DNA of 32,000 bases from Pseudodesulfovibrio piezophilus C1TLV30 (GTDB taxonomy: Bacteria > Desulfobacterota > Desulfovibrionia > Desulfovibrionales > Desulfovibrionaceae), in the NCBI RefSeq assembly GCF_000341895.1, contig NC_020409.1, forward strand, positions 2,310,001 to 2,342,000, read 5' to 3'. Below are positions 758 to 16,304 of the stretch, one piece after another. Within the stretch, counting starts at the first letter, position 1, and every line of letters starts with the position of its first letter. Position numbers and translations under genes: made by a program. The notes beneath the pieces were generated by a model. It was not told where the DNA came from, did no database searches, and saw only the letters and a list, made by a program, of their open reading frames with translations.

Positions 758-1504
758 CTACCAGACTGCGTCCGCCAGTGAGCCTTTCATATCATAAGGG
801 AACGTTTTCTTGCCCACTGTCATCTGCCCCTTGAGATCAAAAGACGTCTGGTACAAATCGACCGGATTGAGCAGCCCTCTTCCTGAAGCCTTGACTGATA
901 AGGGTTTTCCCATGGAAAAATCACGGATAGTCATATCCTGTCCCTTGATCTCGGAAGTGAACGCGAGATCCTCAACAACCTTTTCATCAGGAAGAATGAG
1001 ATGCTGCGAGCGGATATCCACCCAGCCATTCCGGGGAAGTATAGCACCTTCGGGCATGAAAAGATTTCCGGCCACATGCAGAATACCCTTGAGATCCGCT
1101 CCCCCCAAAAGCGCGGTCAGGTTAAGGTCGCCTTCAAAGTCGAAGGTGCCATTCTGAAAGAGGTTCAATTCGCATTCGGAACTGCCGGTATCGAGTCGGA
1201 CCTTGGCCAGAGGCGAAAAACCAATGGAAACATAGGCTTGATGAAACGCCAGATTTCCCGGAGTATCGGCTAGAGTGACCTTGAGTTCGCGAACACGAAA
1301 TCCAAAGGGACCATCCTTGTCAATGGAATCCCACCGCAGTCCCACGGTCGGAAGCCTTTCGTCCAACGAGGCAAGGGCTGACGACCAGAGCTTGTTCCAC
1401 GGCGTAAAAAGCGCGATGCCCAGAGCAAAACCGAAGAACATGAGAAAAAATCGGGCGAGAATTCGACCGGGAAGCGAGGATGTTTTCTTGAAAGGAGATG
1501 CCAT
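758..1504 (-). CDS. GspN-like (type II secretion / pilus-assembly accessory) single-pass membrane protein
   Basis: Track ORF 758..1510. I prefer ATG 1504 because GAGGA sits 6 nt upstream, whereas 1510 is a TTG. It has an N-terminal TM helix (ILARFFLMFFGFALGIALF) followed by a ~210-aa periplasmic region. It starts 3 nt after the stop of the GspM-like gene. The family call rests on topology, size and gene order only. Confidence 0.45.
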   Translation of the reverse strand: MASPFKKTSSLPGRILARFFLMFFGFALGIALFTPWNKLWSSALASLDERLPTVGLRWDSIDKDGPFGFRVRELKVTLADTPGNLAFHQAYVSIGFSPLAKVRLDTGSSECELNLFQNGTFDFEGDLNLTALLGGADLKGILHVAGNLFMPEGAILPRNGWVDIRSQHLILPDEKVVEDLAFTSEIKGQDMTIRDFSMGKPLSVKASGRGLLNPVDLYQTSFDLKGQMTVGKKTFPYDMKGSLADAVW

Positions 1505-1513
1505 GATCAATCC

Positions 1514-2011
1514 TCAACGGGCCAAGACGAAATGCGCGTCAGCAAGACGCGGATCATCCGGGTTGCGAGTCAGAATACAACTGGGCGTTTGCAAGCTCGC
1601 CCTGTCGCGCAGGGCAACCATGAAAGAGGTCAGTTTATTGAGAGAAAGCCCCGAGAATGTCACCTGAATGCCTTTTATATCATCATCTACAACTGTTGAG
1701 CGAATGGAGGTCAGATTCTTCTCAATGACCAAATCATCAATGATGGCCCAGGTCGCATCTTCCACACTCAAATGTGTCAGCGCACCCTGTTGGGCGCGTA
1801 ATGCTTTGATATCCTGTACGATAGGAACGACACGGCCATACTGTTCCTTGCTCTCAGCAATACGCTGTTCCAAAGAACCGGAAAAAAGCTTGAGGCCTAT
1901 AGAAATGGACAGGACACTCACTATGGTCCCCAAAAGAATCATCCGAAAAAATCGCTTTTGCGATTCTCTGGGCCAGAAGCTCCAGAAATATACCGGAGGC
2001 TGTTTTTTCAT
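1514..2011 (-). CDS. GspM-like type II secretion accessory protein
   Basis: 165 aa with an N-terminal TM helix (FFRMILLGTIVSVLSISIGL) and then a coiled segment. The C-terminal region IQVTFSGLSLNKLTSFMVALRDRASLQTPSCILTRNPDDPRLADAHFVLAR resembles the GspM C-terminal pattern. Its start shares an ATGA overlap with the upstream gene's stop (2008..2011). Confidence 0.5.
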   Translation of the reverse strand: MKKQPPVYFWSFWPRESQKRFFRMILLGTIVSVLSISIGLKLFSGSLEQRIAESKEQYGRVVPIVQDIKALRAQQGALTHLSVEDATWAIIDDLVIEKNLTSIRSTVVDDDIKGIQVTFSGLSLNKLTSFMVALRDRASLQTPSCILTRNPDDPRLADAHFVLAR

Positions 2012-2568
2012 TGTGGCTCCACAATCAGGCTGAACGTAATGCCACCGAAGACTTCTTCCCGTTTTTCAAGGGAAAAAAGATAGTATTCATCGTTGGTCAG
2101 GTCGGAAATATACGTGTCAAACTCCTCGACATTCGGCCCGAAGAACCCTCGCGCCCTGGCCTTTTTCCCATCCAGCGTCAAGCCTTCCAGGCGGAGACTC
2201 TCCACTGCCGGGCGGCTCAGAGCTGCCAGAACGGAAACCGGGTCGAGACCGATGCGATTCGTGGCAGCGAGTTTTCCATAGGCAAATTGCAGCCTGCCAA
2301 AAGGAGAATTCCCGATATCCGGGCCAAGGACTGAAATATATAATTTGTCGGTCTCGTCCAATATCTGATTGAGTTGTTGCAGGTTGAAGCCGTACCGCAG
2401 GAGTTGTCCTGTCAGAAAAAAGCCGCAAATAACCACAACCCAGACCAGATTCTGAAGAAAACGTCTGGATGCGAGAGCCGACTCCCGACTCACCGTCCTG
2501 CCCGTGGATGTGGACGAAATCGGCTCCGAAGCCCTGTCTTGTATCTTTCCTGCCGTCATTCCGCCCAA
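2008..2568 (-). CDS. GspL C-terminal / PilN-like membrane protein
   Basis: 186 aa with a TM helix (LVWVVVICGFFLTGQLL) followed by a ~125-aa periplasmic domain. It is the first gene of a 3-gene overlapping set. The start is uncertain: 2568 is a TTG, an ATG lies at 2559, and neither has a clear SD. It lacks the cytoplasmic actin-like half of a full GspL. Confidence 0.4.
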   Translation of the reverse strand: MGGMTAGKIQDRASEPISSTSTGRTVSRESALASRRFLQNLVWVVVICGFFLTGQLLRYGFNLQQLNQILDETDKLYISVLGPDIGNSPFGRLQFAYGKLAATNRIGLDPVSVLAALSRPAVESLRLEGLTLDGKKARARGFFGPNVEEFDTYISDLTNDEYYLFSLEKREEVFGGITFSLIVEPQ

Positions 2569-3289: not shown

Positions 3290-3312
3290 AAAACCCCGGA
3301 GAGTTCCGGGGT
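3288..3312. terminator. Shared hairpin terminator between the convergent CPBP gene and the 11-gene operon
   Basis: The stem is ccccgga (3294..3300) paired with tccgggg (3305..3311), with a gagt loop. An A6 run on the plus strand precedes it, which reads as a T-run after the hairpin on the minus strand. That makes it a good rho-independent terminator for the minus-strand operon and a weaker one for the plus strand. Confidence 0.6.
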
Positions 3313-3347: not shown

Positions 3348-3788
3348 TTATTTATCCGATATTGTGAACGACCCTTTGGTCTTCTGCCCATCATCGTCCC
3401 AAAATATTTCAATTGAGCATTTGGCCTTGTCTTTCTTGCGACTCAGTTTCATTTCGAAAAAAACTTCCTCTGCCACACCGAGGCTGACGGTCTGTTCTCC
3501 ATCCCTGACCCTGATAAGCCCGCTTTCCAATGAGTGCGTCAAATCTTTGAGGTGGGTAACGACCTGCTCTATTCCCATGGTTTCCTTGATCTTGACCTTG
3601 GCCTTTTCCATTATTTTCTCCTTGTTGGCGGGACCGGAATCAGGTGGCAGAAAAAAACCGCCGTTTGCGACGACCGGAATCGGAGTGAGACCGGTCGTAT
3701 CGGTGATCGGGATCTCCACCGGTTTGGCAACGGCATTGGGATCAACCCAACTCAACGGATTGGCTCCGAGCCTCTTGTCACTACTCAT
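3348..3788 (-). CDS. amphi-Trp-domain protein with an N-terminal extension; candidate ParA partner
   Basis: Track ORF 3348..3929. I prefer the internal ATG at 3788 (MSSDKRLGANPLSWV...), which has GGGAG 5 nt upstream and overlaps the ParA stop by 8 nt (ATGAGTAG). The C-terminal ~70 aa (IEQVVTHLKDLTHSLESGLIRVRDGEQTVSLGVAEEVFFEMKLSRKKDKAKCSIEIFWDD) aligns by eye with the two other amphi-Trp ORFs, including the terminal Trp. Confidence 0.7.
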   Translation of the reverse strand: MSSDKRLGANPLSWVDPNAVAKPVEIPITDTTGLTPIPVVANGGFFLPPDSGPANKEKIMEKAKVKIKETMGIEQVVTHLKDLTHSLESGLIRVRDGEQTVSLGVAEEVFFEMKLSRKKDKAKCSIEIFWDDDGQKTKGSFTISDK

Positions 3789-4542
3789 GGGGTCTCCCTC
3801 GACGAAGCACTTCCAGAGCCAGGTTCCGATAGTCGGCGGCCCCATTGCTGCGTGGTTTGTAGGTGAATATGTCCTGCCCGAAACTCGGTGCTTCAGCCAG
3901 GGAGATGTTGTCGCGGATACTCGTTTCAAGAAGGTCGCCCTTGAAATAGTCCCGGATATTGCGTTGAATTTCTCGATTCAGTTTCTTCTGTCGCTGAAAT
4001 CGGGTCAGCACGATACCGGCCAGGGCAAGATGCGGATTCCACCCGGACCTGATGGCTCCCACGGTTTCCATCAGCTTGCCGAGACTTTGCAGGGCGAGAA
4101 ATTCGGGTTGAACCGGAACCAATAATTCGGTTCCCGCCACGAGCGCATTCAATGAAAGTAATCCGAGGTTCGGCGGACAATCCATGAGGCAGAAATCATA
4201 CCCCTCAACACCCTCAAGAGCCGCCTTGAGTCGGGTTTCACGATTCCCGACTCCAGCCAGCTCCACTTCGGTTCCGGCCAGGGCCACCGAAGCGGGAACA
4301 ACGTCCAGATCCCCAACCCTGCGAGCAACGTCGGCAAGGGCGCATTCGCCCGTCAGCACGGCTCCCATGGTGCGTGGTAACTCATGAGCCATGATCCCCA
4401 GTGAATACGTCAGATGCGCCTGGGGATCGAGATCGAGCAGAAGCACACGCTGCTTTTGCCGAGCAAGGCCAGCACCGAGATTGACCGTTGTCGAGGTCTT
4501 ACCGACCCCACCCTTCTGATTAAGAATGACGAGTGTTCGCAT
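3781..4542 (-). CDS. ParA/Soj/MinD-family P-loop ATPase (orphan, no ParB nearby)
   Basis: 253 aa. MRTLVILNQKGGVGKTSTTVNLG carries the deviant Walker A KGGxxGK[ST]. Also present are LLLDLDPQ, MDCPP (Walker B region) and a typical ParA C-terminal half. Confidence 0.9.
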   Translation of the reverse strand: MRTLVILNQKGGVGKTSTTVNLGAGLARQKQRVLLLDLDPQAHLTYSLGIMAHELPRTMGAVLTGECALADVARRVGDLDVVPASVALAGTEVELAGVGNRETRLKAALEGVEGYDFCLMDCPPNLGLLSLNALVAGTELLVPVQPEFLALQSLGKLMETVGAIRSGWNPHLALAGIVLTRFQRQKKLNREIQRNIRDYFKGDLLETSIRDNISLAEAPSFGQDIFTYKPRSNGAADYRNLALEVLRRGRPHE

Positions 4543-4579
4543 GGCGCTCCCGTGGACTCCTCTCCGACATTGCTCTTTC

Positions 4580-4759
4580 CTATTGGGTGACGAGAGCGAT
4601 CTTGCGAATCACGTATTCCCGTCCATGTTCATCCGTTACCTTGTTGATTCGCGAAAGTATTTTCTCCCGTTCTTCATCCTCCAGATTTTCCTCGTCACGA
4701 ATACAGAACAGGTCACAGACTTCCTTCCATTCGAAACTTCGCTTGGTTTCCTGAGTCAT
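4580..4759 (-). CDS. Small acidic hypothetical protein (59 aa), below the ORF-track length cutoff
   Basis: My translation is MTQETKRSFEWKEVCDLFCIRDEENLEDEEREKILSRINKVTDEHGREYVIRKIALVTQ*. A strong SD (GGAGGAAACA) sits immediately before the ATG at 4759. The ORF fills the otherwise empty 247-nt gap between two operon genes on the same strand. Confidence 0.6.
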   Translation of the reverse strand: MTQETKRSFEWKEVCDLFCIRDEENLEDEEREKILSRINKVTDEHGREYVIRKIALVTQ

Positions 4760-4789
4760 TGTTTCCTCCGGACGCGAACGTCCACATGT

Positions 4790-5296
4790 TCATTTTTTCG
4801 GCTTTGTGGCCGCAACGTGACGCGAAGCGGTCTTCTTGGCCGGAGATTTTTTGGCAGAAGCCTTTTTTTTCACGGTTTTCTTTTCTGCGGAAGGACCGGC
4901 AACCGGCGATGTCACTGCCGGCGGTTCGGCTGAGACCCTTTCGGCCGGGACCGCGCTCACCTTTTCCGCCGGAACAGCAGCAGGTTGAACGGCAGTCATC
5001 TCCGATCCCGGACTTGTGACCGGAGCCAGATCATCTTTAGGGATTGTATCGCCAATGACGAAATCACCATTGCTCCCCTCGGTCCATGTCAGCTCAAAAG
5101 AAAATTTCTGTTTGCCTTTCTTGACCTTGGCCTCAACTTCAATCCCCACGGTTTCCGCCGGAGTCAGGCTGACATGATCACCATCACGACTGACGACGAT
5201 AGTACCGGATTTGAAGCTCTCAAGCAGGGCCTCCATGTAGGCGACTGCCTCAGTGTAGGTCAGGGTCATCTTAACGTCGATTTTCTGCTTTTCCAT
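4790..5296 (-). CDS. amphi-Trp-domain protein with a Pro/Ala repeat linker and a Lys-rich histone-H1-like tail
   Basis: The N-terminal 73 aa (…AYMEALLESFKSGTIVVSRDGDHVSLTPAETVGIEVEAKVKKGKQKFSFELTWTE) are paralogous to 10182..10448. A tandem AVPAEKVS/AVPAERVS repeat follows (4931..4978). The tail is AEKKTVKKKASAKKSPAKKTASRHVAATKPKK (4793..4888). GAGGAAGG lies upstream of the ATG. Confidence 0.8.
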   Translation of the reverse strand: MEKQKIDVKMTLTYTEAVAYMEALLESFKSGTIVVSRDGDHVSLTPAETVGIEVEAKVKKGKQKFSFELTWTEGSNGDFVIGDTIPKDDLAPVTSPGSEMTAVQPAAVPAEKVSAVPAERVSAEPPAVTSPVAGPSAEKKTVKKKASAKKSPAKKTASRHVAATKPKK

Positions 5297-5324
5297 GGGA
5301 ATCCTTCCTCATCTGGTTGAAACG

Positions 5325-6509
5325 CTATGTCAGTGAGAGCAGCACCCGTGTCAGGTTGTGCTCGTCAATCAAGGGGCTGCTTGCCTCGGTTACCAGTGGA
5401 CAATCAATGACCTTCAATCCCATTGCCTCCAGTTCCCTGCGGCCAAGGCCACCCTGATAACGCCCCTGTTTCGTATCAACTACCACGAATTCGACACCGA
5501 CTCCATGCTCAGGCGCTCCACTTTGGTGCAGATACGTGTTGAGCAAAGCAGCCTGATCGGCCACACTCAACCCCTGCGCCTCTGGATCATTGCCGGTATT
5601 GGGAACAAAAACCTTGGGGCATGTATTGGCCGCGACTGCCTCTCCCACGCCATATGGCAGCAAATTGGCAACGACGCTGGAATAGAAGCTTCCAATAGGG
5701 TAGCAGATGAGGTCTGCCTCGGCGATACGCTCTTTGATCTTGTTGCGTACAGATGCCGTGACCGATTCCTGGCTGGTTAGGGAATCGGTCAACCAAATAT
5801 CACGGATGGGCGTGACGAGAGGAGCTGTCTCCTTGCCCGTAATGGCATGTTGGCCCACGATGACATTGCCATCCTCCAGCCGCACGGCCAGGTGCAAGTC
5901 CTTGTTGATCGTCGGCCGCACAATGCCACACACCTGCACCAGCTTGGAAAATATGTAGATGACCGGATCGAGCTGACGCCTGTTTTGCAGATACCCTGCC
6001 GTGAGCACTAGGTTGCCGATACTGGCTCCCTTGAGATCGAAATCTGTCGGCATGATATCCATGAACTGATGAAAATGATTTCGTATGATCTTGCGCATGG
6101 GATCGGGAATGGCACGCACCAGCGGATGTCTTCCCGCTGCCATGCTCTCCAGCTCGGCCTCCAGGTCGGCCTGTTTGGATTCTTTGGAAAGCCGATGGGC
6201 AAAGAGATCAAATATGGCGGGGTTGCCCTTCACTGATTGATCGGCCAAAGCCATGAGTCGATTGCGAATATCACCGACCGCAGGCATGCCGAACGCGCCC
6301 CGGATGACAGCTGAACTGCCCCCGGAATCAAAAGGGGTGATCAAGTGGATGGAATTATGGGTATAACAGATCAATTCGCGCGAAGTTTTGCGGAGGGCGG
6401 TTCCACCACTGAAAAAGAGAATCCTCGGTCCCAATTCCGGGGATTTTCGATATAATTCCAGCTTGAACGGGTCGGGGATTTCGACCTCTCTGGTAACGCT
6501 GATCCGCAT
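5325..6509 (-). CDS. CofD/YvcK-family protein (from memory, named 'GAK system CofD-like protein')
   Basis: 394 aa. ILFFSGGTALRKTSRELICYTHNSIHLITPFDSGGSSAVIRGAFGMPAVGDIRNRLMALAD matches the GGGTG…D(S/D)GGSSG…GDxRN core of the CofD/YvcK (UPF0052) family. GGGAG lies 5 nt upstream of the ATG. Confidence 0.8.
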   Translation of the reverse strand: MRISVTREVEIPDPFKLELYRKSPELGPRILFFSGGTALRKTSRELICYTHNSIHLITPFDSGGSSAVIRGAFGMPAVGDIRNRLMALADQSVKGNPAIFDLFAHRLSKESKQADLEAELESMAAGRHPLVRAIPDPMRKIIRNHFHQFMDIMPTDFDLKGASIGNLVLTAGYLQNRRQLDPVIYIFSKLVQVCGIVRPTINKDLHLAVRLEDGNVIVGQHAITGKETAPLVTPIRDIWLTDSLTSQESVTASVRNKIKERIAEADLICYPIGSFYSSVVANLLPYGVGEAVAANTCPKVFVPNTGNDPEAQGLSVADQAALLNTYLHQSGAPEHGVGVEFVVVDTKQGRYQGGLGRRELEAMGLKVIDCPLVTEASSPLIDEHNLTRVLLSLT

Positions 6510-6527
6510 GGCTACTCCCTGCCTATC

Positions 6528-7619
6528 TCAAGACAGTATGCCGGTTTCCATATACTTCAGACAGATATCAGCGGCCTTTTCAAAATCAACCCCTCCGGAA
6601 ATCTCGATAAGGTTTGTCCGGGAGAGCATGTCGGCATATGCCTCGATCCCCGGATCTTCCCGGCGGTCCGGATTTTGTGGCAGATAGAACAGGCCCGTCC
6701 CCTTCATGAAGGCAGGCAGCAGATCCTCACGGTCGTGGGGATCGACCAGTGCCACGCGCATATCACCGCCCTCCCGCTTCCAGTTGAGTATGACGAGAGC
6801 ATCCATGGTGCTTTTCAGGGAAAACCTGCCCGGACCGTAGCACTCATCAATAAGAGCATCATATTTATGCTCCAATTGCCACAAATCCTCCGTGGGCATG
6901 GCAAGGAACTCTTCACGGAGTTCAGATTCCACTATCCGGCTCAGGTCTGGATTATTCAAGGCGGTTCCAGGGTTGATCCGTGGTTGTTTGGCAACACCGA
7001 ACATGGTCAGTCCTTCACCGCTCTCCTCGACCATGATTCTGTCATTACTGACAAAAGTCGTGCCCTTGCTCATCAGATGCAGGGCCAATGTGGACTTCCC
7101 CGCACCGGAAAAACCAGCCAATGATATTCCGCGTTCATTGTGAATAACTCCGGCAGCATGCCCAAGAAACCCACCCATGTTGAGCTTCCACTCTATGAAT
7201 CTGTTGTTGATGAAGTTGATAACCTGGTTGGAATTGTCCAGGCAGGGACCTATGGCGCAATTTTCACCCTGACCAAAAATAAAATGCATGCCTGTTAGCC
7301 TCTTGCGGACAATTCTGCCGTCAGCCAGGTCCACCCATTCTTCCTTGATTTTGGTTTTTCCCGGATCCGGTGTTTTGACGGAAAAATCAAAATCAAGAGC
7401 CAGGGTATGACACTCGTGAGCAGAGACTGTAATCATCGCAGCCCCGGAAGTGGTGACAAACTCCTTGAAATAGTCAGCCAAGGCTTCATGCAAGGCCGCA
7501 GTGGAACTGTCCACCCGGATGAGACACCCGCCGAAATCGAGAAAAAGGGTATGCGTCGCCGGTATGTCATTCCTGATCCGGCCGACCAGCTCTTCTCTGG
7601 TGTTTCCTGTCAACTTCAT
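6528..7619 (-). CDS. HprK-related P-loop kinase
   Basis: Track ORF 6528..7625. ATG 7619 is preferred because GGAG sits 8 nt upstream and it forms an ATGA overlap with the ATP-grasp stop. ISLAGFSGAGKSTLALHLMSKGTTFVSNDRIMV resembles the HPr kinase/phosphorylase Walker A region plus the downstream (V/A)xDD-type motif. Confidence 0.7.
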   Translation of the reverse strand: MKLTGNTREELVGRIRNDIPATHTLFLDFGGCLIRVDSSTAALHEALADYFKEFVTTSGAAMITVSAHECHTLALDFDFSVKTPDPGKTKIKEEWVDLADGRIVRKRLTGMHFIFGQGENCAIGPCLDNSNQVINFINNRFIEWKLNMGGFLGHAAGVIHNERGISLAGFSGAGKSTLALHLMSKGTTFVSNDRIMVEESGEGLTMFGVAKQPRINPGTALNNPDLSRIVESELREEFLAMPTEDLWQLEHKYDALIDECYGPGRFSLKSTMDALVILNWKREGGDMRVALVDPHDREDLLPAFMKGTGLFYLPQNPDRREDPGIEAYADMLSRTNLIEISGGVDFEKAADICLKYMETGILS

Positions 7620-8488
7620 CTGCATTTCTCCATAACGTATTCAACATATCGCGCTGCGGCATCGATACCGCTGGTTTCCTGTATACCGCGAAATCCTCCG
7701 AAGGCAGAGACCTCGAAGACAAAAGGCCCGTCATCGGTGATGGCTACATCCACACAGGTAAAATCCAGGTTGAACCGGGATTGTGCCTTGCGGGCCAATT
7801 CGATGATATCCGGTGAAGGTTCATAGGAGCGGTATTTTCCACCGGATTCCGTGGTGGTATTCCACGCGCCATTGGTCTTGCACCGGGCATAAGTGGTCAG
7901 ATATTCGCCGCCAAGAAAAGCGATGCCAAGATCAAGATCGCCCAGTTCGATGGTCTTCTGGATGTACATGATCGGATTTTCCGCCTTGTATGCCTCAATG
8001 GCCTTGCGAGCCTCGGGACCATCCTTCAGTATGAACATTCCCCGCGCCTTGGAAGTGTAGAGCGGCTTGAAAACGGCCTCGCCATATTCTGCCATGGCAA
8101 CCAGCGCCTGATCCACACTTTCGGTTATGGTGGTGGGTGGCATGGGAATATCGGCCAGTTGCAGGGAGATGGTACAGCTCAACCGGTCGAGCACTCTGAG
8201 AATTGAATAGGCCGAGCTGAAAATCTTCAACCCGCGCTCCTGAAGATACCGGAGCACTTCCAATCTATCGAGCAGGTCCGGCGAGTACCTGGACCCTATT
8301 TTCTTGATGATCAGTGCGTCAAAGTCTCTCAGGTTGTGGCCGTTATAGTAGGCATTGCCTGAGGGAAGATCGAGACGGACATCTTCCATGCCGATAAGTA
8401 CACGTTCTTCGCCGGTCTTGTCGGCCACGGTATCGGCGAGCTTTTCCGACGACCAGCCGCCTTTGGTTCCGATGACTCCTATTTTCAC
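7616..8488 (-). CDS. RimK-type ATP-grasp ligase (from memory, named 'GAK system ATP-grasp enzyme')
   Basis: 290 aa with a GTG start and AAGGAG 7 nt upstream. Size and layout fit the RimK/CofF/MptN family: an N-terminal pre-ATP-grasp region, FKPLYTSKARGMFILKD (Lys loop), MYIQKTIE, and a C-terminal FVFEVSAFGGFRG (Mg-ATP site region). Confidence 0.75.
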   Translation of the reverse strand: MKIGVIGTKGGWSSEKLADTVADKTGEERVLIGMEDVRLDLPSGNAYYNGHNLRDFDALIIKKIGSRYSPDLLDRLEVLRYLQERGLKIFSSAYSILRVLDRLSCTISLQLADIPMPPTTITESVDQALVAMAEYGEAVFKPLYTSKARGMFILKDGPEARKAIEAYKAENPIMYIQKTIELGDLDLGIAFLGGEYLTTYARCKTNGAWNTTTESGGKYRSYEPSPDIIELARKAQSRFNLDFTCVDVAITDDGPFVFEVSAFGGFRGIQETSGIDAAARYVEYVMEKCR

Positions 8489-8524
8489 GAAATAACTCCT
8501 TGAAACTGGCTGATGCTGGTTGTT

Positions 8525-10177
8525 TTAAAAGTAAAGAACATCTTCGGGCAGAGAAAATTTTTCCCATGGCCCACCCTGATAATGGTGAATCTTTTCCAAC
8601 AGGAACATGGACCGGTTATACATTTCCTTGGCGAATTTGTAGTTCAGTTCGAACCGGGTGGAAGTGTAGAATGAACGGGCCAGGGCAAAGGCCATGCGCG
8701 CTTCAAAGGTGGCGTCCTCATGCTGCTGGGCGAATCCTTTGGCAAAGCGGTAGAACTGCCGAATGACATGATTGATACGACCACGATGTTCGGCATCAAA
8801 AACCGGCATACGAAAGTTCGAGATCAGAAAAACCGAAGCGTCCTGAATGTAGTCGAAATCACGCGACCGGTAGAGGTCTATATAATGCACTTGCTGAGCT
8901 TCATGATTGTAAACGACATTATTGATATTAAAATCGCCATGAATGAAGACTGAAAAAGGTGCTTCCAATTCGTTTTCTATCACCGCACAGTGCTTGAGCA
9001 GTTCCTCGGTGGATTCGACCTCGGAGCGACCGAGTGATTTGGGAGTCCGCCAGAATTCGGGGTGCGTTTGCAGCACCCCCTCCAATCGGGACTGGACCTG
9101 CCTGATATAGTTCGTCTTGATGGGGGTCGGGTCCAGTGTCTGAGTCCAGGTCTCCAAAACCGTTGACTCGAAAACGAACAAGGCATTGCGGGCAAATTCA
9201 TCCTCCCCTGAAAGGACTATCTCATCCAGGGTACACCCGTTGAGAAACTCGACCAGCATGGCCCCTTTGTCGCCATCTTCATGAAATCCGTAAATATCAG
9301 CCACCAGATTTGGGAACGTCTGTTTCCAGCGTTGAATCGATTCCCGTTCCTTGCGAATTTTTTCCAGGCTTCCTTCTTTGTAAATAGACCCCTGACGCAC
9401 ATCTTCAGCTCCCATCACATCATCACGCTGCTCAACCTTGCCGATGCGACACCCTGAGCGGGTCCCCCATATGGCCCTGAAATCGATATCCGCAAAAGAA
9501 TCGCTGAAGCCGGACTTGCTCAGGGTTTGCTGCAATGCGTCAAACTGTTCTATCTTGATACGCTCGCCCAGCAGGGAAAAAATGATCGCTTCACCAATGT
9601 TGAGCAGGGCGTCACCCACCCGCTCGAAATACCGGAAGATGAAAAGAACCGTGACCAGACTTTGAGCTTCCCGCCCCATGCCCATTTCATTCATCACACG
9701 ATCAAAACGGACCTTGTAGACCGAATCGAGCATGGGTTCGGACTTGCAGATAAAAAGAGCCTTGGACATGTCTTCCTCGTGATACGCCACCAAAATAATG
9801 GCCAATCGTTCGAGGATGATGTCAAAGACCTCGTTATAGTCATATTTCTGGATGAATGATTGCTCGTCGAGATATCTCATCTGCTTGACTATATTAACAA
9901 AATAGTCTGCTATCTTTTCCAGATTCACACACATGACCTGCATGGCGCGTATCTTGTTCAACTGATTCTTATCCAATGATTTATCCGAATGGATACGGGA
10001 ATAACATTTGTTTTCGATGATTGTTTTCAAATTATCGATGTAGTCATCGCGGGACGTGATCTTCGAGTGGCGTTTTCTGGTTGGGGAATCCATGAAGGCG
10101 CGGGTTGACCGGGCCTGATTTTCGACTTCAAGAACCATGAACTTGAAATTTTCGTCCAGTCCTTCAAAAGTAATCAT
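8525..10177 (-). CDS. Fusion protein: N-terminal PhoU-like repeat domain plus C-terminal APH/choline-kinase-type phosphotransferase
   Basis: 550 aa. PhoU-like signatures: SRDDYIDNLKTIIENKC, VNLEKIADYFVNI and FRYFERVGDALLNIGEAIIF. Kinase signatures: FIHGDFNINNVVY (HxDxxxxN catalytic loop) and VHYIDLYRSRDFDYIQD (metal-binding D). Confidence 0.7.
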   Translation of the reverse strand: MITFEGLDENFKFMVLEVENQARSTRAFMDSPTRKRHSKITSRDDYIDNLKTIIENKCYSRIHSDKSLDKNQLNKIRAMQVMCVNLEKIADYFVNIVKQMRYLDEQSFIQKYDYNEVFDIILERLAIILVAYHEEDMSKALFICKSEPMLDSVYKVRFDRVMNEMGMGREAQSLVTVLFIFRYFERVGDALLNIGEAIIFSLLGERIKIEQFDALQQTLSKSGFSDSFADIDFRAIWGTRSGCRIGKVEQRDDVMGAEDVRQGSIYKEGSLEKIRKERESIQRWKQTFPNLVADIYGFHEDGDKGAMLVEFLNGCTLDEIVLSGEDEFARNALFVFESTVLETWTQTLDPTPIKTNYIRQVQSRLEGVLQTHPEFWRTPKSLGRSEVESTEELLKHCAVIENELEAPFSVFIHGDFNINNVVYNHEAQQVHYIDLYRSRDFDYIQDASVFLISNFRMPVFDAEHRGRINHVIRQFYRFAKGFAQQHEDATFEARMAFALARSFYTSTRFELNYKFAKEMYNRSMFLLEKIHHYQGGPWEKFSLPEDVLYF

Positions 10178-10181
10178 CGTG

Positions 10182-10448
10182 TTAACTGACCTTCAAGGGT
10201 GTCTCGTTCACATCCCTGGTCCCGGTACAGTCCTTCCAGCTTACCCGAATGGACAACTTGGTCTCGGTCCCCTTTTTTTTGGCTTTGACAGTAAAATTGA
10301 GCAACCCCTCCGGCTTAAGCACAATAGCATCGCCATTGGTGGACAAGGTTATGCTCCCCTTGTCAAAACCATCGGTCAGGGACACCAGAAAATTCTTGAT
10401 GGTGTCGCAATCCTGCAACGAATCAAACACAAATTTTTCTTCTGACAT
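10182..10448 (-). CDS. amphi-Trp-domain protein (stand-alone, 88 aa)
   Basis: MSEEKFVFDSLQDCDTIKNFLVSLTDGFDKGSITLSTNGDAIVLKPEGLLNFTVKAKKKGTETKLSIRVSWKD… comprises an amphipathic helix, a beta hairpin, a Lys-rich turn and a strand ending in Trp. AAGGAGA lies 5 nt upstream of the ATG, and the stop lies 4 nt before the next gene. Confidence 0.8.
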   Translation of the reverse strand: MSEEKFVFDSLQDCDTIKNFLVSLTDGFDKGSITLSTNGDAIVLKPEGLLNFTVKAKKKGTETKLSIRVSWKDCTGTRDVNETPLKVS

Positions 10449-10467
10449 TCATCTCTCCTTGAAGAGG

Positions 10468-11631
10468 CTAGCCTGCGAGGCGTTCCTTGTATTCCTTGAT
10501 AATGGTCCGGCGACTGATGTTGTTGACTATGAGTCGCTTGCGGATACTCAGGTCATCCCATGCGGGCTGGAATCCTATCTCCCTGCCCGCCTTGGCACTA
10601 TCCTGCTGATTGACCGGCTTTGTCTTCTCGCCCATGTGACAATCGTCTCCCATGAAGATAAGCGTCTCGCGCTCGCCCCCTCGTCGCCTCTGATTCTGCT
10701 CATTGACCACGGAGATGAGAAATTCAGTATATTCCTGTGATTGAGGATTCCAGACCTCGATGCCGTCAACATCATAATTGCGTAACAGGATGGGCCAGAA
10801 TTCCTCGGGATGCGGAATGACCACGCACCCGCCAAGGGAACGGACTTCCTCGATCACTTCGCTGGCCCGGTAGAAAAAGGAAAGATTGAACTCGGCCTTG
10901 ACCAACTGCTTGACCGCTTTGAGATACGCCTGCACACGATTCACGGCGGTATCTCCAAGCTCCGGACGCATGGAATCAAACCAGTTCCGAAGCAACTTGT
11001 TTTTGACAGACATTCTCGGCACGTCTTTCCAATGATCATCAAGCATCCGCTCTATCTTGGCGACATTAATCCGAACAAACTCGATAAGCTCACGGTCTGC
11101 TCCCGTGGCCTTGGCCGCCTTGTGGAGACGTTCCTCGTGAGGTCTGGTAATAGTGTGCATAAACTCGAAGAGCTGACCTGATCTGTATTTGAACGTATGG
11201 GCCAGCATGGACTTGAGCACTCCGGCCTCCTGCACACGATCATTGGAAAAATGCAGCAGCAACTGCACTTTGCGGTTGAACCCGCTGGAATAGCAGTCCA
11301 CTTCCACGCCAGAGTAATCCCCCCAACTCATAAGCACATTGTGTTGTGTGGGGATCAGCAGTTCCTCCTTGCGATTGGGAAACATGGCGTCCACCCGTTT
11401 ACGGATGTATTCCATGGGGACAAACTCCGGATGCCAATGGGCAGCGAGAAGCGCCTCCTGCCGGACATACACATTGGAAGGCGTCACCACCTGCTCGATC
11501 TGCCATGGCTCCAAGTCCGTGGAAACCACGGCAAAGAACCGGGACTGATCGTCCTCGCTCACTTCTTCGGAGGCCACTCCAGGGAAAATCCGGCACTCCA
11601 CCTTTTCATCATCCTGCTTGATCAATTGCAT
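10468..11631 (-). CDS. PHP-domain-like phosphoesterase (tentative)
   Basis: Track ORF 10468..11640 begins at a GTG that overlaps the GGAAG SD. ATG 11631 sits 8 nt after that SD. PHP-like metal-ligand motifs: AAHWHPEF (HxH), VVIPHPEEFW…DGIEVWNPQS, and LIFMGDDCHMGEK (GxDxH). Confidence 0.5.
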   Translation of the reverse strand: MQLIKQDDEKVECRIFPGVASEEVSEDDQSRFFAVVSTDLEPWQIEQVVTPSNVYVRQEALLAAHWHPEFVPMEYIRKRVDAMFPNRKEELLIPTQHNVLMSWGDYSGVEVDCYSSGFNRKVQLLLHFSNDRVQEAGVLKSMLAHTFKYRSGQLFEFMHTITRPHEERLHKAAKATGADRELIEFVRINVAKIERMLDDHWKDVPRMSVKNKLLRNWFDSMRPELGDTAVNRVQAYLKAVKQLVKAEFNLSFFYRASEVIEEVRSLGGCVVIPHPEEFWPILLRNYDVDGIEVWNPQSQEYTEFLISVVNEQNQRRRGGERETLIFMGDDCHMGEKTKPVNQQDSAKAGREIGFQPAWDDLSIRKRLIVNNISRRTIIKEYKERLAG

Positions 11632-11655
11632 CGCCATCACTTCCGGTTGGGTATT

Positions 11656-12186
11656 TCAGTCATACTTGGCATGACAGCGACTCTTTTCATGAACGAGGAC
11701 ATCTATCGTCTCGTGCATTCTGCCCATGTCACCGGATTCATGCGCTTCACGAAATGCCTCACATGCTCTGGTATAGTCCTCATAATATTCATCACCATAG
11801 CCGGGATAGCTCACCATCAGGGCGGAATCCTCCAGAAATGAAACCACAGCTTCATCCGGTGGCATCTGCCCGTCATGAATCAACTTGACCAACATCCTGA
11901 AGCTCTGCTTCATCCGCTTCTTGAGGCTCTTGTATTTTGGCTTGGCGGGCGAACCGTCCGATTGCATACCATCGACATCAGGCACGCATTCCTTGCCCGA
12001 CTTGAATTTGCCTTTGACAGAGATCTTCCCGAATTCGTTCTTTCCGCTGATCTTGAATTTAATACAATCCTCGACACAGGGAAATTCATCGGAATTCCCT
12101 TGCTCCAGAGCATCAGCCAAATTCCGAAAAAAATCCGGTAATTCCTTGAGATCAATATATTTCACGATCTTCGATTCGTTTCCCAT
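11656..12186 (-). CDS. XXXCH-domain protein; first gene of the operon
   Basis: 176 aa. The C-terminus is …DMGRMHETIDVLVHEKSRCHAKYD (the xxxCH motif). The N-terminal ~60 aa (LPDFFRNLADALEQGNSDEFPCVEDCIKFKISGKNEFGKISVKGKFKSGKE) look like a Trp-less amphi-Trp fold. GGAG lies 8 nt upstream of the ATG. Confidence 0.7.
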   Translation of the reverse strand: MGNESKIVKYIDLKELPDFFRNLADALEQGNSDEFPCVEDCIKFKISGKNEFGKISVKGKFKSGKECVPDVDGMQSDGSPAKPKYKSLKKRMKQSFRMLVKLIHDGQMPPDEAVVSFLEDSALMVSYPGYGDEYYEDYTRACEAFREAHESGDMGRMHETIDVLVHEKSRCHAKYD

Positions 12187-12384
12187 GCTGTTCGCTCCAT
12201 TGTTGAGGGGAAGTCTGTCTCATACCATCGGCTTCCACCTGATCACAATAGAATAAGCAATATTGTAACAATTCTTCACACGGCGAAAACCTCGGAATCA
12301 AAGCCTCTTCAATAAATGGAACACATTCAGCCCCACCATCCGCACTTCCCAAACCCGGTCCCGGCTGATAGACATCTGCGTGAG
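12187..12384. promoter_or_regulatory. Divergent control region between the 11-gene operon and asnB
   Basis: 198-bp gap between divergent start codons. It contains three ACAAT/ATTGT half-sites: ACAAT 12245..12249, ATTGT 12262..12266 and ACAAT 12268..12272. The last two form the palindrome ATTGTAACAAT. No promoter hexamers could be assigned with confidence. Confidence 0.4.
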
Positions 12385-14346
12385 ATGTGCGGCATTACCG
12401 GTTTTATCAATCCAGCCATGATCGGCGACAAGCAGGGACTCCTGACCACGTCTGAAACCATGGCCAACACCCTGAACCACCGCGGCCCGGATGGCTCCGG
12501 TACATTTGCCGACGCGCAATTCGGTGTTGCCTTGGCCCATCGCCGCCTCGCCATCATCGACCTGACTGACTGCGGTGCCCAGCCCATGCGCAGTGTCGAT
12601 GGACGGTTGACCATTACTTTCAACGGCGAAATCTATAATTTTCAGGAAATTCGAACGGAACTGGAATCGGCAGGCGGCCCTTTCCTGCCCTGGCGGAGCA
12701 GTTCTGATACTGAGGTCATGCTTGCTGCCATACAGGTATGGGGTTTGGAAACAGCTCTGAGTCGTTTTGTCGGGATGTTCGCCTTTGCCCTCTGGGACCA
12801 GGATCAGCATGTTCTGCATCTTGCGCGGGACAGAATGGGAGAAAAACCCCTCTACTATGGCCGGGCCGGAAACAGTCTTGTTTTCGGCTCTGAACTCAAG
12901 GCTCTGCGGGCCTATCCCGGATTCTCGCCAGAACTCGATATGGAAGCCCTCTCTCTGTACCTACGCTTCCAGTATGTCCCGGAACCCCGCTCCATCTACA
13001 CAGGTGTTGCAAAACTTTCTCCCGGCCATCTGCTGACCGTTCATGCGGACGCGCTCCATGACCTGACCCCGGTCCCTTACTGGACCCTGAGCGAGACCGT
13101 GATCAACGCACAGGCTGCCCCTTTTTCAGGGACTGAGACTGAGGCCGCAGATCAGCTTGAAGGACTTTTGCGTTCGTCGGTTCGTAACCAGATGCTCGCG
13201 GATGTGCCATTGGGCGCACTCCTTTCCGGCGGTATCGATTCATCCCTGATCACCGCCCTCATGCAGCAGGAATCATGCCGCCCTATTCGCAGTTTCACCA
13301 TAGGATTCGACGATGCCGCCTATGACGAATCCGCCAGTGCCCGACAGATTGCCGCTCATATCGGCACAGACCATACCGAACTATTTGTCACCCCGGACCA
13401 TGTTCTCGATCTGATTGAGACCCTCCCCGATCTCTATGACGAACCCTTTTCCGACGCCTCCCAACTCCCCACCCATCTTGTGGCCCAAATCACACGAAAT
13501 CATGTCACGGTCTGCCTCACCGGAGATGGTGGAGACGAAGCCTTTGCCGGGTATAACCGACATTTTTGGGCACCGGCCATATGGAATAAAATCAGTCGGT
13601 TCCCGACAGGTCTTCGTTCTCTGACAGCCCGTGCACTTCAGCAGATTTCACCGGGAAGTTACGAAACGCTCTTTTCCGCCCTCGGACATCTACTCCCCAA
13701 GGCATCACGTGTCAGTACGCCGGGCCACAAACTCCACAAGCTCGCTGATATCCTCTCCATGGAGAGCCGAGAAGCCCTTTACAAGCAACTCTGCTCCACC
13801 TGGTCAGACCCTGCGAAACTGCTCGGAGTCCCGGAACCTTCCACAGATATCGACCTGCCCGATTCCTGGCCTCCCTTTGCCGATTATACACGCCAGATGC
13901 AGTATCTCGATACCATCACCTACCTGACGGGTGACATACTGCATAAGGTTGACCGCGCGACCATGGGAGTCTCTCTGGAATCGCGCGCGCCCTATCTCGA
14001 CCACAGGGTTCTTGAATTTGCATGGAGATTACCGGTCTCCATGCTGATCCGTAAAAAACAGGGGAAACATATTCTTCGGACCATCCTTGACCGATCTGTA
14101 CCGAAAGAACTGATGGACCGTCCCAAGATGGGCTTTGGAATTCCCATTGACAAATGGCTGCGCGGTCCTCTCAAGGAATGGGCTTATTCCCTGCTTGACC
14201 CAACACGACTTCGCCGACAGGGGATGCTCGATGTCGCTCTCATTACCCGACAACTCAACGAACATATGAGCGGTCAACGAGACAACCAGTACCGGCTCTG
14301 GAATATACTTATGCTTCAATCATGGCTGGACAGGTGGATGCATTGA
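12385..14346 (+). CDS. asnB: Asparagine synthase (glutamine-hydrolysing), class II amidotransferase
   Basis: Track ORF 12316..14346. The true start should be ATG 12385, giving MCGITGF… with the obligatory N-terminal Cys nucleophile. Also present are HRGPD, LAIIDL, the SGGIDSS PP-loop, and a typical AsnB C-terminal half. Confidence 0.9.
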   Translation: MCGITGFINPAMIGDKQGLLTTSETMANTLNHRGPDGSGTFADAQFGVALAHRRLAIIDLTDCGAQPMRSVDGRLTITFNGEIYNFQEIRTELESAGGPFLPWRSSSDTEVMLAAIQVWGLETALSRFVGMFAFALWDQDQHVLHLARDRMGEKPLYYGRAGNSLVFGSELKALRAYPGFSPELDMEALSLYLRFQYVPEPRSIYTGVAKLSPGHLLTVHADALHDLTPVPYWTLSETVINAQAAPFSGTETEAADQLEGLLRSSVRNQMLADVPLGALLSGGIDSSLITALMQQESCRPIRSFTIGFDDAAYDESASARQIAAHIGTDHTELFVTPDHVLDLIETLPDLYDEPFSDASQLPTHLVAQITRNHVTVCLTGDGGDEAFAGYNRHFWAPAIWNKISRFPTGLRSLTARALQQISPGSYETLFSALGHLLPKASRVSTPGHKLHKLADILSMESREALYKQLCSTWSDPAKLLGVPEPSTDIDLPDSWPPFADYTRQMQYLDTITYLTGDILHKVDRATMGVSLESRAPYLDHRVLEFAWRLPVSMLIRKKQGKHILRTILDRSVPKELMDRPKMGFGIPIDKWLRGPLKEWAYSLLDPTRLRRQGMLDVALITRQLNEHMSGQRDNQYRLWNILMLQSWLDRWMH

Positions 14347-15423: not shown

Positions 15424-16304
15424 CAAAGACTCCAAAGCTCACGCACCACATTGATCAGTGCTGCAATGGCCGGATCTTCCTCCTGAGCCTTGCGGTACAC
15501 GAAATTGAGTTCCACGGGATGGCGGCCCAGTGAGGTGCACACAGCACAGTGCCCGGACTCCAGAAGACTGGCCACCTCATCATCACGGACAAGAGCAAGG
15601 GCTTTCCCCTGAACCACCAGAGGCCGGATGACTTCTTCGGAATCCGCACCAATGGTCTGTGCAGGTGTGATGGCGTGATCCTTGAATATTTTCAGTTGCA
15701 ATTCCCGAAAAGGACAATGACTGGTGGGCATGACCCAGGTAAATTCCGACAGAGATGTTGCATTGGCCGAAGCAAGGCGATCCTGCCACTGTGCCGCACC
15801 CACAATGAAATATTCCGGTTCAGCCAGTTTTATAGCCTGGATATCCCCATAGGGATTGCCGGAGAAGACAAAAGCGGCATCAATATTCTTGGCCCGCAAC
15901 TCCGTCAGAATGACCCCGGAGGGTGACTGAACAAGCTTGAGATTGAGCTTGGGAAACCGCTCACTCATATACTCAAGCAGGGCGGTGACATTGAGATAAG
16001 TTGGGTCCGTACACAGACCTATACTTATTTTTCCGGCTATTTCACCGTGCAAAGTCACTGCTTTGGCCTGAAGTTTTTCCGCAGCAGCGAGAACTTCAAT
16101 AGCGTCCACTATAAGCTCACTTCCGGCTACCGTGAGTTCGACACCACGGGGAGTACGATCAAAAAGGCGTACACCGAGTTCTTCCTCCAATGCCTTGATA
16201 TGGGCTGAAATAGCGGGCTGAGTGGCATGAACACGTTTTCCGGCACGAGTGAAGTTTCCTTCCTCAGCCACGGCAACGAGTGTTCTCAATTGGTAGAGTT
16301 CCAT
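15423..16304 (-). CDS. LysR-family transcriptional regulator (upstream paralog)
   Basis: Track ORF 15423..16364. I prefer ATG 16304, MELYQLRTLVAVAEEGNFTRAGKRVHATQPAISAHIKALEEELGVRLFDRTPRGVELTVAG, because LysR proteins begin directly with the HTH. Confidence 0.85.
   Translation of the reverse strand: MELYQLRTLVAVAEEGNFTRAGKRVHATQPAISAHIKALEEELGVRLFDRTPRGVELTVAGSELIVDAIEVLAAAEKLQAKAVTLHGEIAGKISIGLCTDPTYLNVTALLEYMSERFPKLNLKLVQSPSGVILTELRAKNIDAAFVFSGNPYGDIQAIKLAEPEYFIVGAAQWQDRLASANATSLSEFTWVMPTSHCPFRELQLKIFKDHAITPAQTIGADSEEVIRPLVVQGKALALVRDDEVASLLESGHCAVCTSLGRHPVELNFVYRKAQEEDPAIAALINVVRELWSL

Follow-up and report, generated by a model that had tools for sequence, protein, structure and literature searches.

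A complete GAK operon near the replication origin of Pseudodesulfovibrio piezophilus: conserved core, predicted phosphate control and candidate functions

The window analysed here is a stretch of 32,000 nucleotides (nt) from the chromosome of Pseudodesulfovibrio piezophilus C1TLV30 (NC_020409.1, positions 2,310,001 to 2,342,000), and the subject of this work is the operon found on its minus strand at window positions 3348-12186. The operon comprises eleven consecutive genes in the open reading frame (ORF) list of the window, and the same eleven were obtained in an independent gene call by JGI on an identical metagenome contig. It is a complete 'GAK system' in the NCBIfam/TIGRFAM sense, all five GAK models (TIGR04354-TIGR04358) having been identified above their curated cut-offs on one strand within 8.8 kb. 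The features are listed below in window positions, from the promoter side to the terminator.

12187-12384: divergent intergenic control region, between the operon and an asparagine-synthase-type gene
12265-12280, minus strand: predicted PhoB box TGTGAA-GAAT-TGTTAC, one mismatch to the D. vulgaris consensus, 79-94 nt before the first ATG
11656-12186, minus strand: XXXCH protein, 176 residues, TIGR04358 104.8 bits (cut-off 40), ending in ...KSRCHAKYD
10468-11640, minus strand: PHP-like metal phosphoesterase, 387-390 residues (start uncertain), assigned by predicted fold and ligand motifs; 1589 homologues
10182-10448, minus strand: amphi-Trp-1, 88 residues, TIGR04354 68.1 bits (cut-off 31), N-terminal F-x-F-D-S-L-Q-D
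8525-10177, minus strand: PhoU-domain/APH-EcKL-type kinase fusion (PhoU-kinase), 550 residues, Pfam PhoU 58, EcKL 28.8 and APH 20.9 bits
7616-8488, minus strand: GAK ATP-grasp ligase, RimK/MptN-like, 290 residues, TIGR04356 449.9 bits (cut-off 300), full length
6528-7625 (or 7619), minus strand: HprK-related kinase B (HprK_B), 363-365 residues, TIGR04355 550.2 bits (cut-off 200), profile positions 1-351 of 351
5325-6509, minus strand: GAK CofD-like protein, 394 residues, TIGR04357 548.1 bits (cut-off 340), Pfam CofD (PF01933) 138 bits
4790-5296, minus strand: amphi-Trp-2, 168 residues, TIGR04354 66.8 bits (cut-off 31), with a basic Ala/Pro/Lys-rich disordered tail
4580-4759, minus strand: acidic ORF of 59 residues with a GGAGG Shine-Dalgarno (SD) motif, called by JGI, no family match
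3781-4542, minus strand: Soj-type ParA ATPase, 253 residues, AAA_31 161 bits, deviant Walker A motif KGGVGKT
3348-3788, minus strand: amphi-Trp-3, 146 residues, TIGR04354 48.5 bits over residues 66-131 (cut-off 31)
3293-3312, minus strand: intrinsic terminator, 8-bp stem with 6 GC pairs followed by TTTTTAT, shared with a convergent Rce1-like (CPBP) gene

From the first gene to the last the junctions are 15, 19, 4 and 36 nt, an ATGA overlap, 18, 28, 30 and 37 nt, and an 8-nt overlap. The ATGA overlap, between the ATP-grasp and HprK_B genes, grows to 10 nt when the upstream ATG is taken as the start. SD-like motifs precede ten of the eleven starts, the exception being the PHP-like gene, and the first ATG at 12186 has a GGAG motif 8 nt upstream. 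The terminator begins 36 nt past the last stop codon. An earlier note on this DNA, made from its letters and open reading frames, had described eleven same-strand genes with exactly these junctions, most of them with their own SD motif, and a hairpin terminator at the 3' end; the ORF list, the JGI call and the stem agree with it throughout. The family models scored above likewise bear out its GAK assignment and its naming of three small amphi-Trp-type proteins, an XXXCH protein, a RimK-type ATP-grasp, an HprK-like kinase, a CofD/YvcK-like protein, a PhoU-APH kinase fusion and a ParA ATPase. As a catalogue entry the operon is already known, RefSeq naming the P. piezophilus proteins with GAK labels. 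The label was said in the earlier note to denote a gene neighbourhood with no function assigned, and full-text searches indeed found no paper giving a substrate, product or phenotype; the searchable literature held a single incidental mention of amphi-Trp/GAK families, in proteomics.

Conserved core and lineage-specific genes

For comparison, 16 diverse HprK_B sequences were aligned and one genome per species was scanned. At least 489 species encode an HprK_B relative, and the best 80 loci (cited below by L numbers) were kept and compared by tblastn of the window proteins, with a hidden Markov model (HMM) scan for amphi-Trp proteins in addition. The order XXXCH, PHP-like, amphi-Trp-1, PhoU-kinase, ATP-grasp, HprK_B, CofD-like and amphi-Trp-2 was identified in nearly all sufficiently long loci, spanning Desulfovibrionales, Desulfobacterales, SAR324, Zixibacteria, Nitrospinaceae, Ignavibacteria and Acidobacteriota metagenome-assembled genomes. 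Recurrence of the set in nearly all of the 80 loci, which come from other species, places this gene order far beyond chance and provides the neighbourhood conservation that the earlier note had asked about. The same note had seen the operon as a GAK core expanded here with ParA, PhoU-kinase and PHP modules. This holds for ParA, which is present in five loci only, and not for the other two: the PhoU-kinase and the PHP-like esterase are found at unchanged positions in practically all of the 80 loci and are therefore core members.

By this comparison only ParA, amphi-Trp-3 and the 59-residue ORF are lineage-specific. The first two were identified solely in Pseudodesulfovibrio-type loci (L003, L005, L006, L007 and L011; 5/80). 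The spread listed for the 59-residue ORF comprises the ParA loci plus L002 and L004; tblastn placed it at the same position in L002, L004, L005 and L007 with 44-66% identity, and it is probably a real gene. Among the amphi-Trp proteins, the HMM scan identified the 88-91-residue type wherever a locus extends over the gap between the PHP-like and PhoU-kinase genes, L019 excepted, and the tailed amphi-Trp-2 type in about two thirds of the loci. The CofD-like gene is missing in L019, L077 and L079. A second CofD-like paralogue (38-42% identity) was observed in Maridesulfovibrio loci L009, L010, L013, L015 and L019, at about 19-21 kb and on the opposite strand, some 6.5-8 kb downstream of the GAK cluster; L019 is the one without a copy inside the cluster.

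A distant variant (36-38% identity) was identified on chromid-like plasmids of Rhodobacterales (L082, 9373-15262; L083, 7674-15298; L084, 5011-12289). It keeps the PhoU-APH kinase fusion, the ATP-grasp, HprK_B and one amphi-Trp gene, with the CofD-like gene usually divergent and, in Tritonibacter, missing from the operon. It contains neither the XXXCH nor the PHP-like gene, and a histidine phosphatase and a calcineurin-type metallophosphoesterase stand in place of the latter. The operon of one of these loci (L083; Qingshengfaniella) also holds a NUDIX hydrolase gene. Judged by gene content, the irreducible GAK set is thus a pair of kinases together with a ligase, a phosphoesterase activity and a single small amphi-Trp protein.

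Families, folds and motifs of the operon proteins

The HprK_B family comprises 360 representative clusters at E<=1e-30 among 1.84 billion proteins. The P-loop GFSGAGKST is present in the window protein and the triplet N194-D195-R196, which aligns with ADDR, is invariant. The HPr kinase equivalog TIGR00679 scores 24.5 bits against a cut-off of 240, with only residues 166-202 aligned. In the PhoU-kinase, the N-terminus matches PhoU structures 2i0m and 1t72, and both the catalytic loop HGDFNINN (HGDxxxxN) and the two E-[KR]-[IV]-[AG]-D metal motifs of PhoU are conserved. Since the protein passes Pfam PhoU (58 bits vs 23.5) and misses the PhoU equivalog TIGR02135 (78.3 bits vs 130.25), it is a PhoU-domain fusion and not PhoU itself. 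The D. vulgaris 'PhoU family protein' DVU1475 was considered as a PhoU-kinase and is unlikely to be one, the gene spacing there being too short.

After its own model, the ATP-grasp is matched best by MptN (143.6 bits) and then by rimK_fam (103 bits), and it falls far below the cut-offs of the LysX (76 vs 275) and RimK (70 vs 331) models. A representative protein of 648 residues, P0350, joins an ATP-grasp (47% identity to the window protein over 290 residues) to HprK_B; it may be genuinely fused or come from a gene call that was frameshifted at an ATGA-type junction, and it agrees with the ATGA-coupled junction of these two genes in the window.

The PHP-like protein had no Pfam or NCBIfam match at E<=0.01, and a profile search of the PDB found nothing relevant. 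Its AlphaFold model, built on 24 homologues, has a mean predicted local distance difference test score (pLDDT) of 86.9, and the only significant PDB neighbours of the model are PHP phosphoesterases of the BAD_1165 / RNase AM (YciV/TrpH) type: Foldseek returned 3e0f, 3o0f and 9etk as the three significant matches, with probability 1.00 and E from 2e-5 to 1e-4, and 7ug9 with E 0.11 (probabilities 0.99-1.00). A large helical insertion and an N-terminal extension keep the template modelling (TM) scores as low as 0.30-0.55. The ligand motifs H68xH70, H100, E113, H130, H277 and D333xH335 are invariant in the 24 sequences. The earlier reading as a PHP-like phosphoesterase is thus supported by predicted fold and active-site motifs and not by sequence family. 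An hhalign comparison with the PHP domain of a PHP-GT4 fusion protein that neighbours some GAK loci (see the next section) was not significant (probability 0.35%), though the motifs line up.

The closest solved sequences to the CofD-like protein are the UPF0052/YvcK-type 2o2z and 2hzb, and the YvcK model TIGR01826 gives 111.6 bits against a cut-off of 196. By these scores it appears to be a superfamily member that belongs to neither characterised subfamily, CofD or YvcK, the YvcK type being nearer. CofD acts on a small molecule in F420 biosynthesis, and YvcK is a UDP-sugar-binding regulator.

Amphi-Trp-1 begins with an unstructured segment of the form F-x-[FYH]-[ED]-S-[LIV]-Q-D, whose Ser ([ED]SxQD) is kept in 68 of 69 orthologues; the Rhodobacterales versions read FSHESLQD and FRHNSLQD, and the Lys-rich hairpin of the protein is not kept there. 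In the AlphaFold (AF2) model (pLDDT 86.7) helix 14-30 packs on a four-stranded meander, and Ser10 stands 4 residues before that helix. Foldseek found no significant PDB match for this model (best E 1.8, cystatin-like topology) and none in BFVD; sequence matches of amphi-Trp to de novo designed Ig proteins were treated as compositional. A near-invariant Ser four residues before a helix, in a protein encoded beside an HprK-type kinase, recalls Ser46 of HPr, which also lies at a helix N-cap, and by this analogy amphi-Trp-1 is likely a candidate phospho-acceptor. The tail of amphi-Trp-2 is always of low complexity, basic in Desulfovibrionaceae and acidic elsewhere; a general role of this tail in binding polyphosphate or DNA was rejected, the tails being acidic in many lineages. 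In Dissulfuribacter thermophilus, the amphi-Trp protein DITHS69_2464 is among the 20 most abundant proteins (PMC13490349).

The XXXCH protein appears to be composite. Its residues 1-80 match the amphi-Trp profile (hhalign probability 90%, E 1.4e-6), so that the N-terminus is seemingly a fourth, degenerate amphi-Trp copy of the operon. Homologues nearly always end exactly four residues past CH; H94 and M46 do not vary among them, and C93 and M14 hardly do. Over its last ~98 residues the protein aligns weakly, but in register, with four-helix-bundle cytochromes. The match to cytochrome c' 2xle (E 0.03) sets …GDLDKLRAAFGDVGASCKACHDAYK against the consensus …gdleaakaaieeleklkkaCHdkYk, at the very C-terminus, and the domain is in register with the cytochrome c' C-terminus …CKACHDAYK. 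Of 16 members, 6 match Pfam Cytochrom_C_2 (PF01322) and 8 match Cytochrom_B562 (PF07361), with a best E of 0.003, below the gathering score; hhalign against b562, ending …AYHQKYR, gave P 0.0027. No signal peptide was seen when the N-terminal sequence was read for one, and the protein is therefore probably cytoplasmic. On balance it is somewhat probable that 'xxxCH' derives from a CxxCH that lost its first Cys.

ParA matches PDB entries over its full length (ParA 8ray, 186 bits; Thermus thermophilus Soj 1wcv, 174 bits). Its stop codon is the one overlapped, by 8 nt, by the start of amphi-Trp-3, in which a conserved N-terminal peptide MSSDKRLGANPLSWV (MSxDKRLGANPLxWV) is followed by a variable disordered linker and the amphi-Trp domain; the peptide motif is kept in all five ParA-containing loci. 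An N-terminal peptide, a disordered linker and a domain make up the usual layout of ParA-stimulating adaptors, and amphi-Trp-3 looks like a putative ParA adaptor. From the window, this ParA could still be the chromosomal Soj; its partner is not ParB, and the pair was identified only inside GAK loci.

Predicted link to phosphate starvation

The strongest contextual clue to the operon, absent from the earlier note, is a link to phosphate starvation (Pho). In D. vulgaris the PhoB consensus consists of the 6-bp unit (c/t)GTnAC repeated directly after a 4-bp spacer (PMC3333781), and a PhoB site validated by electrophoretic mobility shift assay, AGGTTACAGCATAGTTAC, has a spacer of 5 (PMC6456213). 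The 250 nt upstream of the first GAK gene were searched for the exact consensus with 4- or 5-nt spacers. A box was identified in 16 of 50 loci; composition-matched (dinucleotide-type) shuffles of the same regions gave a mean of 0.10 boxes and a maximum of 2, and control upstream regions carried a box in 12 of 846 cases (1.4%). Loci with pst-phoU directly upstream had a box of their own in 0 of 8. In the window, the box at 12265-12280 is the sole match to the 4-nt-spacer pattern with at most one mismatch in the 32 kb. Exact boxes lie at the matching promoter position in L004, L006 and L011 amid otherwise diverged sequence, and the box appears to be a phylogenetic footprint in Pseudodesulfovibrio promoters, that of the window included. 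The same repeat types were found upstream of pstS in L059, L069, L024 and L050. A CTAACA variant with 11-nt phasing precedes pstS in L024 and L050 and the GAK genes in L045, L047 and L065.

Neighbouring genes, found by clustering the unassigned ORFs of the flanks, point the same way. Recurrent neighbours are pstS, pstC/A, pstB/phnC and a true phoU (206 bits), an OlsF-like ornithine-lipid synthase (398 bits), a thioredoxin-type ArsC/LMW phosphatase and a fusion of ~826 residues with an N-terminal PHP domain and a GT4 lipid-glycosyltransferase-like domain (PHP-GT4). Among the 55 loci with a length of 15 kb or more, 23 contain at least one of these neighbours (pst/phoU, OlsF-like, ArsC-type, PHP-GT4). 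Eight loci have pstSCAB-phoU on the GAK strand immediately upstream of the cluster; the distance from the end of phoU to the XXXCH gene is 65-99 nt in L024 and L050. D. alaskensis G20 makes phosphorus-free lipids with OlsF and the glycosyltransferase Agt, under phosphate limitation only (PMC5193443). A connection between GAK and Dde_3773/3774/3780 of that organism (PMC5193443) was tried and no basis for it was found. With these data, membership of the GAK operon in the Pho regulon of Desulfobacterota is predicted and likely; expression data for GAK genes were not found in the literature searches.

Two further observations concern the same subject. The PHP-GT4 fusion was observed in L029, L037, L038, L041, L043-L045, L049, L055, L057-L059, L064, L070 and L080, lying 80-660 nt from the GAK cluster in 13 of these loci and farther away in L045 and L070. 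Its best NCBIfam matches are membrane-lipid glycosyltransferases, and this single protein may carry out phospholipid-to-glycolipid remodelling during phosphate starvation, as a candidate relative of Agt. In the Rhodobacterales locus L083 (8850-8935), the 66-nt divergent promoter between the CofD-like and NUDIX genes contains TTGTCAT … CTGTGAT-GGTT-TCGTCAT with 11-nt phasing, which resembles an E. coli-type Pho box; this is a single case.

Proposed device, rival explanations and known systems

The favoured reading is that the operon encodes a phosphate-responsive device for phosphorylation and modification of proteins, arranged around the small amphi-Trp proteins; for the overall scheme we give a probability of about 0.4. 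It builds, in silico, on gene content, conserved order, Pho-box enrichment, Pho-type neighbours, folds and motifs. Limitation of inorganic phosphate (Pi) would lead PhoB to act on the predicted box at 12265-12280 and switch the operon on. HprK_B would phosphorylate Ser10 of amphi-Trp-1, in the unstructured ESLQD segment before helix 1, and the phosphorylation would be undone by Pi-dependent phosphorolysis, by analogy with HprK/P, by the PHP esterase or by both; in Rhodobacterales the histidine phosphatase and the calcineurin-type esterase would take over the reversal from PHP. The PhoU-fused APH-type kinase may make a second phosphorylation depend on Pi status. The ATP-grasp of RimK/MptN type, whose gene is translationally coupled to that of HprK_B, may ligate an amino acid (probably Glu) onto a carboxylate; a candidate acceptor is the C-terminus of the XXXCH protein, which is rigidly conserved. 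XXXCH and the tailed amphi-Trp-2 could dock on the same assembly through the shared amphi-Trp domain, and in Pseudodesulfovibrio the Soj-type ParA and amphi-Trp-3, with its ParB-like N-terminal peptide, could position this assembly on the nucleoid. Every biochemical step, the substrate identities and the existence of the assembly are inferred here. Of the guesses made in the earlier note, modification of a carrier or scaffold protein and phospho-signalling remain the leading ideas.

Several points weigh against this reading. The CofD-like protein has no clear place in a protein switch, which is the main weakness of the scheme, and together with the NUDIX gene of one Rhodobacterales locus it suggests nucleotide-linked small molecules; the best match of the ATP-grasp after its own model, MptN, is a small-molecule ligase as well. 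The likeness of HprK_B to HprK/P spans only about 45 residues. The cytochrome-like reading of XXXCH has marginal E-values (0.003-0.08), all below family thresholds, and structure modelling of the amphi-Trp family covered the 88 residues of amphi-Trp-1 alone. As regards phosphate, the box of the window is not significant within the window by itself, where 3.3 such matches are expected by chance, so that the Pho argument rests on the orthologue set. In that set an exact box is wanting in ~60% of the loci lacking an upstream pst operon, the counts of boxes and neighbours overstate independence because the loci are phylogenetically related, and no Pho-type neighbour occurs in the window or in any locus of Pseudodesulfovibrio or Maridesulfovibrio.

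The strongest rival, if a doubtful one, is a small-molecule pathway. Its product, built or recycled, would be a glutamylated metabolite or cofactor tail with a phosphodiester link, comparable to the tail of tetrahydrosarcinapterin or to the phospholactyl-glutamate tail of F420. A phospho-intermediate would come from the kinases, the CofD-like protein would transfer it from a nucleotide-activated donor, the ATP-grasp would add Glu and the esterases would trim or recycle, with the amphi-Trp proteins as carriers, chaperones or regulators and Pho control as phosphorus-sparing or phosphorus-recycling metabolism. The strong CofD family match (Pfam) suits it, but the protein is nearer to the YvcK type than to CofD by sequence, its gene is missing in the Tritonibacter operon and in L019, L077 and L079, and the conserved cluster has no nucleotidyltransferase (CofC/FbiD-type) for the activated donor. 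It is also consistent with the nearest characterised relatives of the ATP-grasp, which are MptN and the RimK/CofF group, with the fold of the PHP-like protein, which matches pAp-phosphatase/RNase AM-type enzymes acting on nucleotides, with the NUDIX hydrolase in the Qingshengfaniella operon and with the esterase swap in Rhodobacterales, which is expected if chemistry alone matters. It leaves unexplained the near-invariant Ser in a disordered segment and the one to four conserved non-enzymatic amphi-Trp proteins per operon. These proteins are the starting point of another reading, which overlaps with the favoured one and is unlikely as a separate explanation: they would build an assembly or condensate that is abundant in the cytoplasm and may, for instance, bind or replace a polyanion such as polyphosphate or nucleic acid in phosphorus stress, the enzymes tuning the assembly and ParA spacing the body. 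Such a body fits the number of amphi-Trp-type domains, as many as four in an operon, of which two have long, charged, disordered tails. It also fits the predicted fold, which lacks a PDB or BFVD match, the abundance of the D. thermophilus protein, should that protein belong to a GAK operon, and the pairing of ParA with an amphi-Trp adaptor, since systems that position cargo are typically built in this way. However, the tails are strongly basic or strongly acidic by lineage, which implies no single ligand, ParA is present in 5/80 loci only, and the Lys-rich hairpin is not kept in Rhodobacterales.

A conflict system, either anti-phage defence or a cluster for a ribosomally synthesised and post-translationally modified peptide (RiPP) in which the HprK-like kinase modifies a precursor, is very improbable. 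HprK-related kinases modify the precursor in phosphorylated lasso peptides and lasso cyclases belong to the asparagine-synthase family; HprK_B has a weak secondary match to HprK_rel_A (27.7 bits), and an asparagine-synthase-type gene divergently adjoins the operon. That gene, however, was identified in 2 other loci only and is non-adjacent there, no conserved protease, cyclase or exporter is present, and the small proteins are conserved over their full length (50-75% identity), unlike variable RiPP cores. The stable chromosomal position in a housekeeping-type context near oriC and the Pho boxes in the promoter also speak against it. The defence version was dropped, a PADLOC scan having given nothing meaningful: only trivial P-loop matches for ParA and one match at E=0.008.

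Carried to its full extent, the favoured phosphate-responsive device would make GAK an unrecognised phosphate-status switch, with an amphi-Trp acceptor of HPr-like role, a kinase-phosphorylase of HprK/P type, a PhoU-gated kinase, an ATP-grasp, a heme sensor (the cytoplasmic, single-Cys, cytochrome-c'-like XXXCH protein) and, in some lineages, a ParA-positioned body. We consider this complete version a long shot. Were it true, it would be a new branch of the bacterial phosphate-starvation response in several hundred species of several phyla. If the phospho-acceptor idea alone is true, GAK would be a second Ser-phosphorylation circuit of HprK/P type outside carbon catabolite control and would bring a new small-protein fold into bacterial signalling. 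In any case this conserved operon of several enzymes, found in at least 489 species representatives, mainly sulfate reducers and other anaerobes, has been a database name for years with its function unassigned; the predicted Pho link gives it a testable condition, and it now has a candidate substrate. Phosphate limitation shapes the activity of sulfate reducers in anoxic sediments, souring and corrosion, and an unrecognised part of their phosphate response would have practical relevance there. No established principle is overturned by these results. Not found in the searchable literature, and possibly present elsewhere, were a core of seven to eight genes to which the PhoU-kinase and the PHP-like esterase belong, the prediction of Pho control, the conservation of the Ser, the amphi-Trp/cytochrome-like make-up of XXXCH, the Rhodobacterales variant with non-orthologous esterases and the lineage-specific pair of ParA and amphi-Trp adaptor.

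As for the chromosomal setting, the genes gyrA, gyrB, dnaN and dnaA stand in a row at 19910-27719 (minus strand) and the cumulative GC skew has its minimum at ~26-28 kb, from which the window spans the replication-origin region of the chromosome. The GAK operon is co-oriented with replication and lies ~14 kb from this region. Across the presumed origin, dnaA is adjoined by a gene of the HcyBio family (homocysteine biosynthesis, sulfur incorporation; 502 bits) at 27932-29101 (plus strand). The asparagine-synthase (AsnB)-type gene divergent from the operon is at 12316-14346 (plus strand), and beyond it, at 14533-16364 and 16759-18834 (both minus strand), come two tandem LysR regulators and a histidine kinase with an ABC-substrate-binding-like sensor domain; the adjacency of the AsnB-type, LysR and histidine kinase genes to GAK is not kept in other genomes. 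Past the convergent Rce1-like gene, three consecutive genes (248, 165 and 142 residues) at 758-2436 (minus strand) have no Pfam match. No known RNA family was identified when the entire window was scanned with Rfam.

Compared with known systems, the operon exceeds the GAK label of the databases, which comprises five families, by the PhoU-APH kinase and the PHP-like esterase in the conserved unit, and in this lineage by ParA, an amphi-Trp adaptor and the 59-residue ORF. With the Pho regulon of D. vulgaris (PhoB DVU1083; pstSCA, phoU and others) the GAK loci share the type of box and the pst, phoU and lipid-gene neighbours; GAK membership is predicted. The PHP-like esterase has the fold and the HxH, H, E, H, H, DxH motifs of TrpH/YciV-type PHP enzymes (RNase AM, pAp phosphatase) but no match to them at sequence level. 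The CofD-like protein is ~80 residues longer than CofD and YvcK, and no cofC, cofE, cofG or cofH genes are nearby. ParA/Soj systems with a ParB- or McdB-type adaptor show the same combination of a KGGVGKT ParA with a coupled downstream partner bearing a basic N-terminal peptide, but amphi-Trp-3, unlike ParB, has no helix-turn-helix or CTPase domain and no ParB family match, its docking domain being amphi-Trp; a parS site was not identified either, no search aimed at one having been made. In XXXCH the His stands 4-5 residues from the C-terminus, as in the b562 ending cited above, with (near-)invariant Met residues upstream; class II cytochrome c carries CxxCH, whereas XXXCH is without the first Cys.

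HprK/P and HprK_B share the P-loop GxSGxGKS and an ADDR-type segment (SNDR in HprK_B), and both the HprK/P-HPr pair and GAK include a small partner protein with a conserved Ser right before a helix. HprK/P is Pi-responsive, using Pi for phosphorolysis. The remainder of HprK_B (365 residues), however, is unrelated to HprK/P, the fold of amphi-Trp-1 differs from that of HPr, and no phosphotransferase system (PTS) genes are nearby. Like GAK, the LysW/LysX and RimK-S6 systems place a RimK-family ATP-grasp beside small non-enzymatic proteins, a kinase and a metal hydrolase. GAK differs from LysW/LysX in having no LysW-like zinc ribbon, no acidic EDWGE tail and no amino-acid biosynthetic enzymes. 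For the C-terminal glutamylation of S6 by RimK, the feature to compare is the strictly positioned C-terminus of the XXXCH protein.

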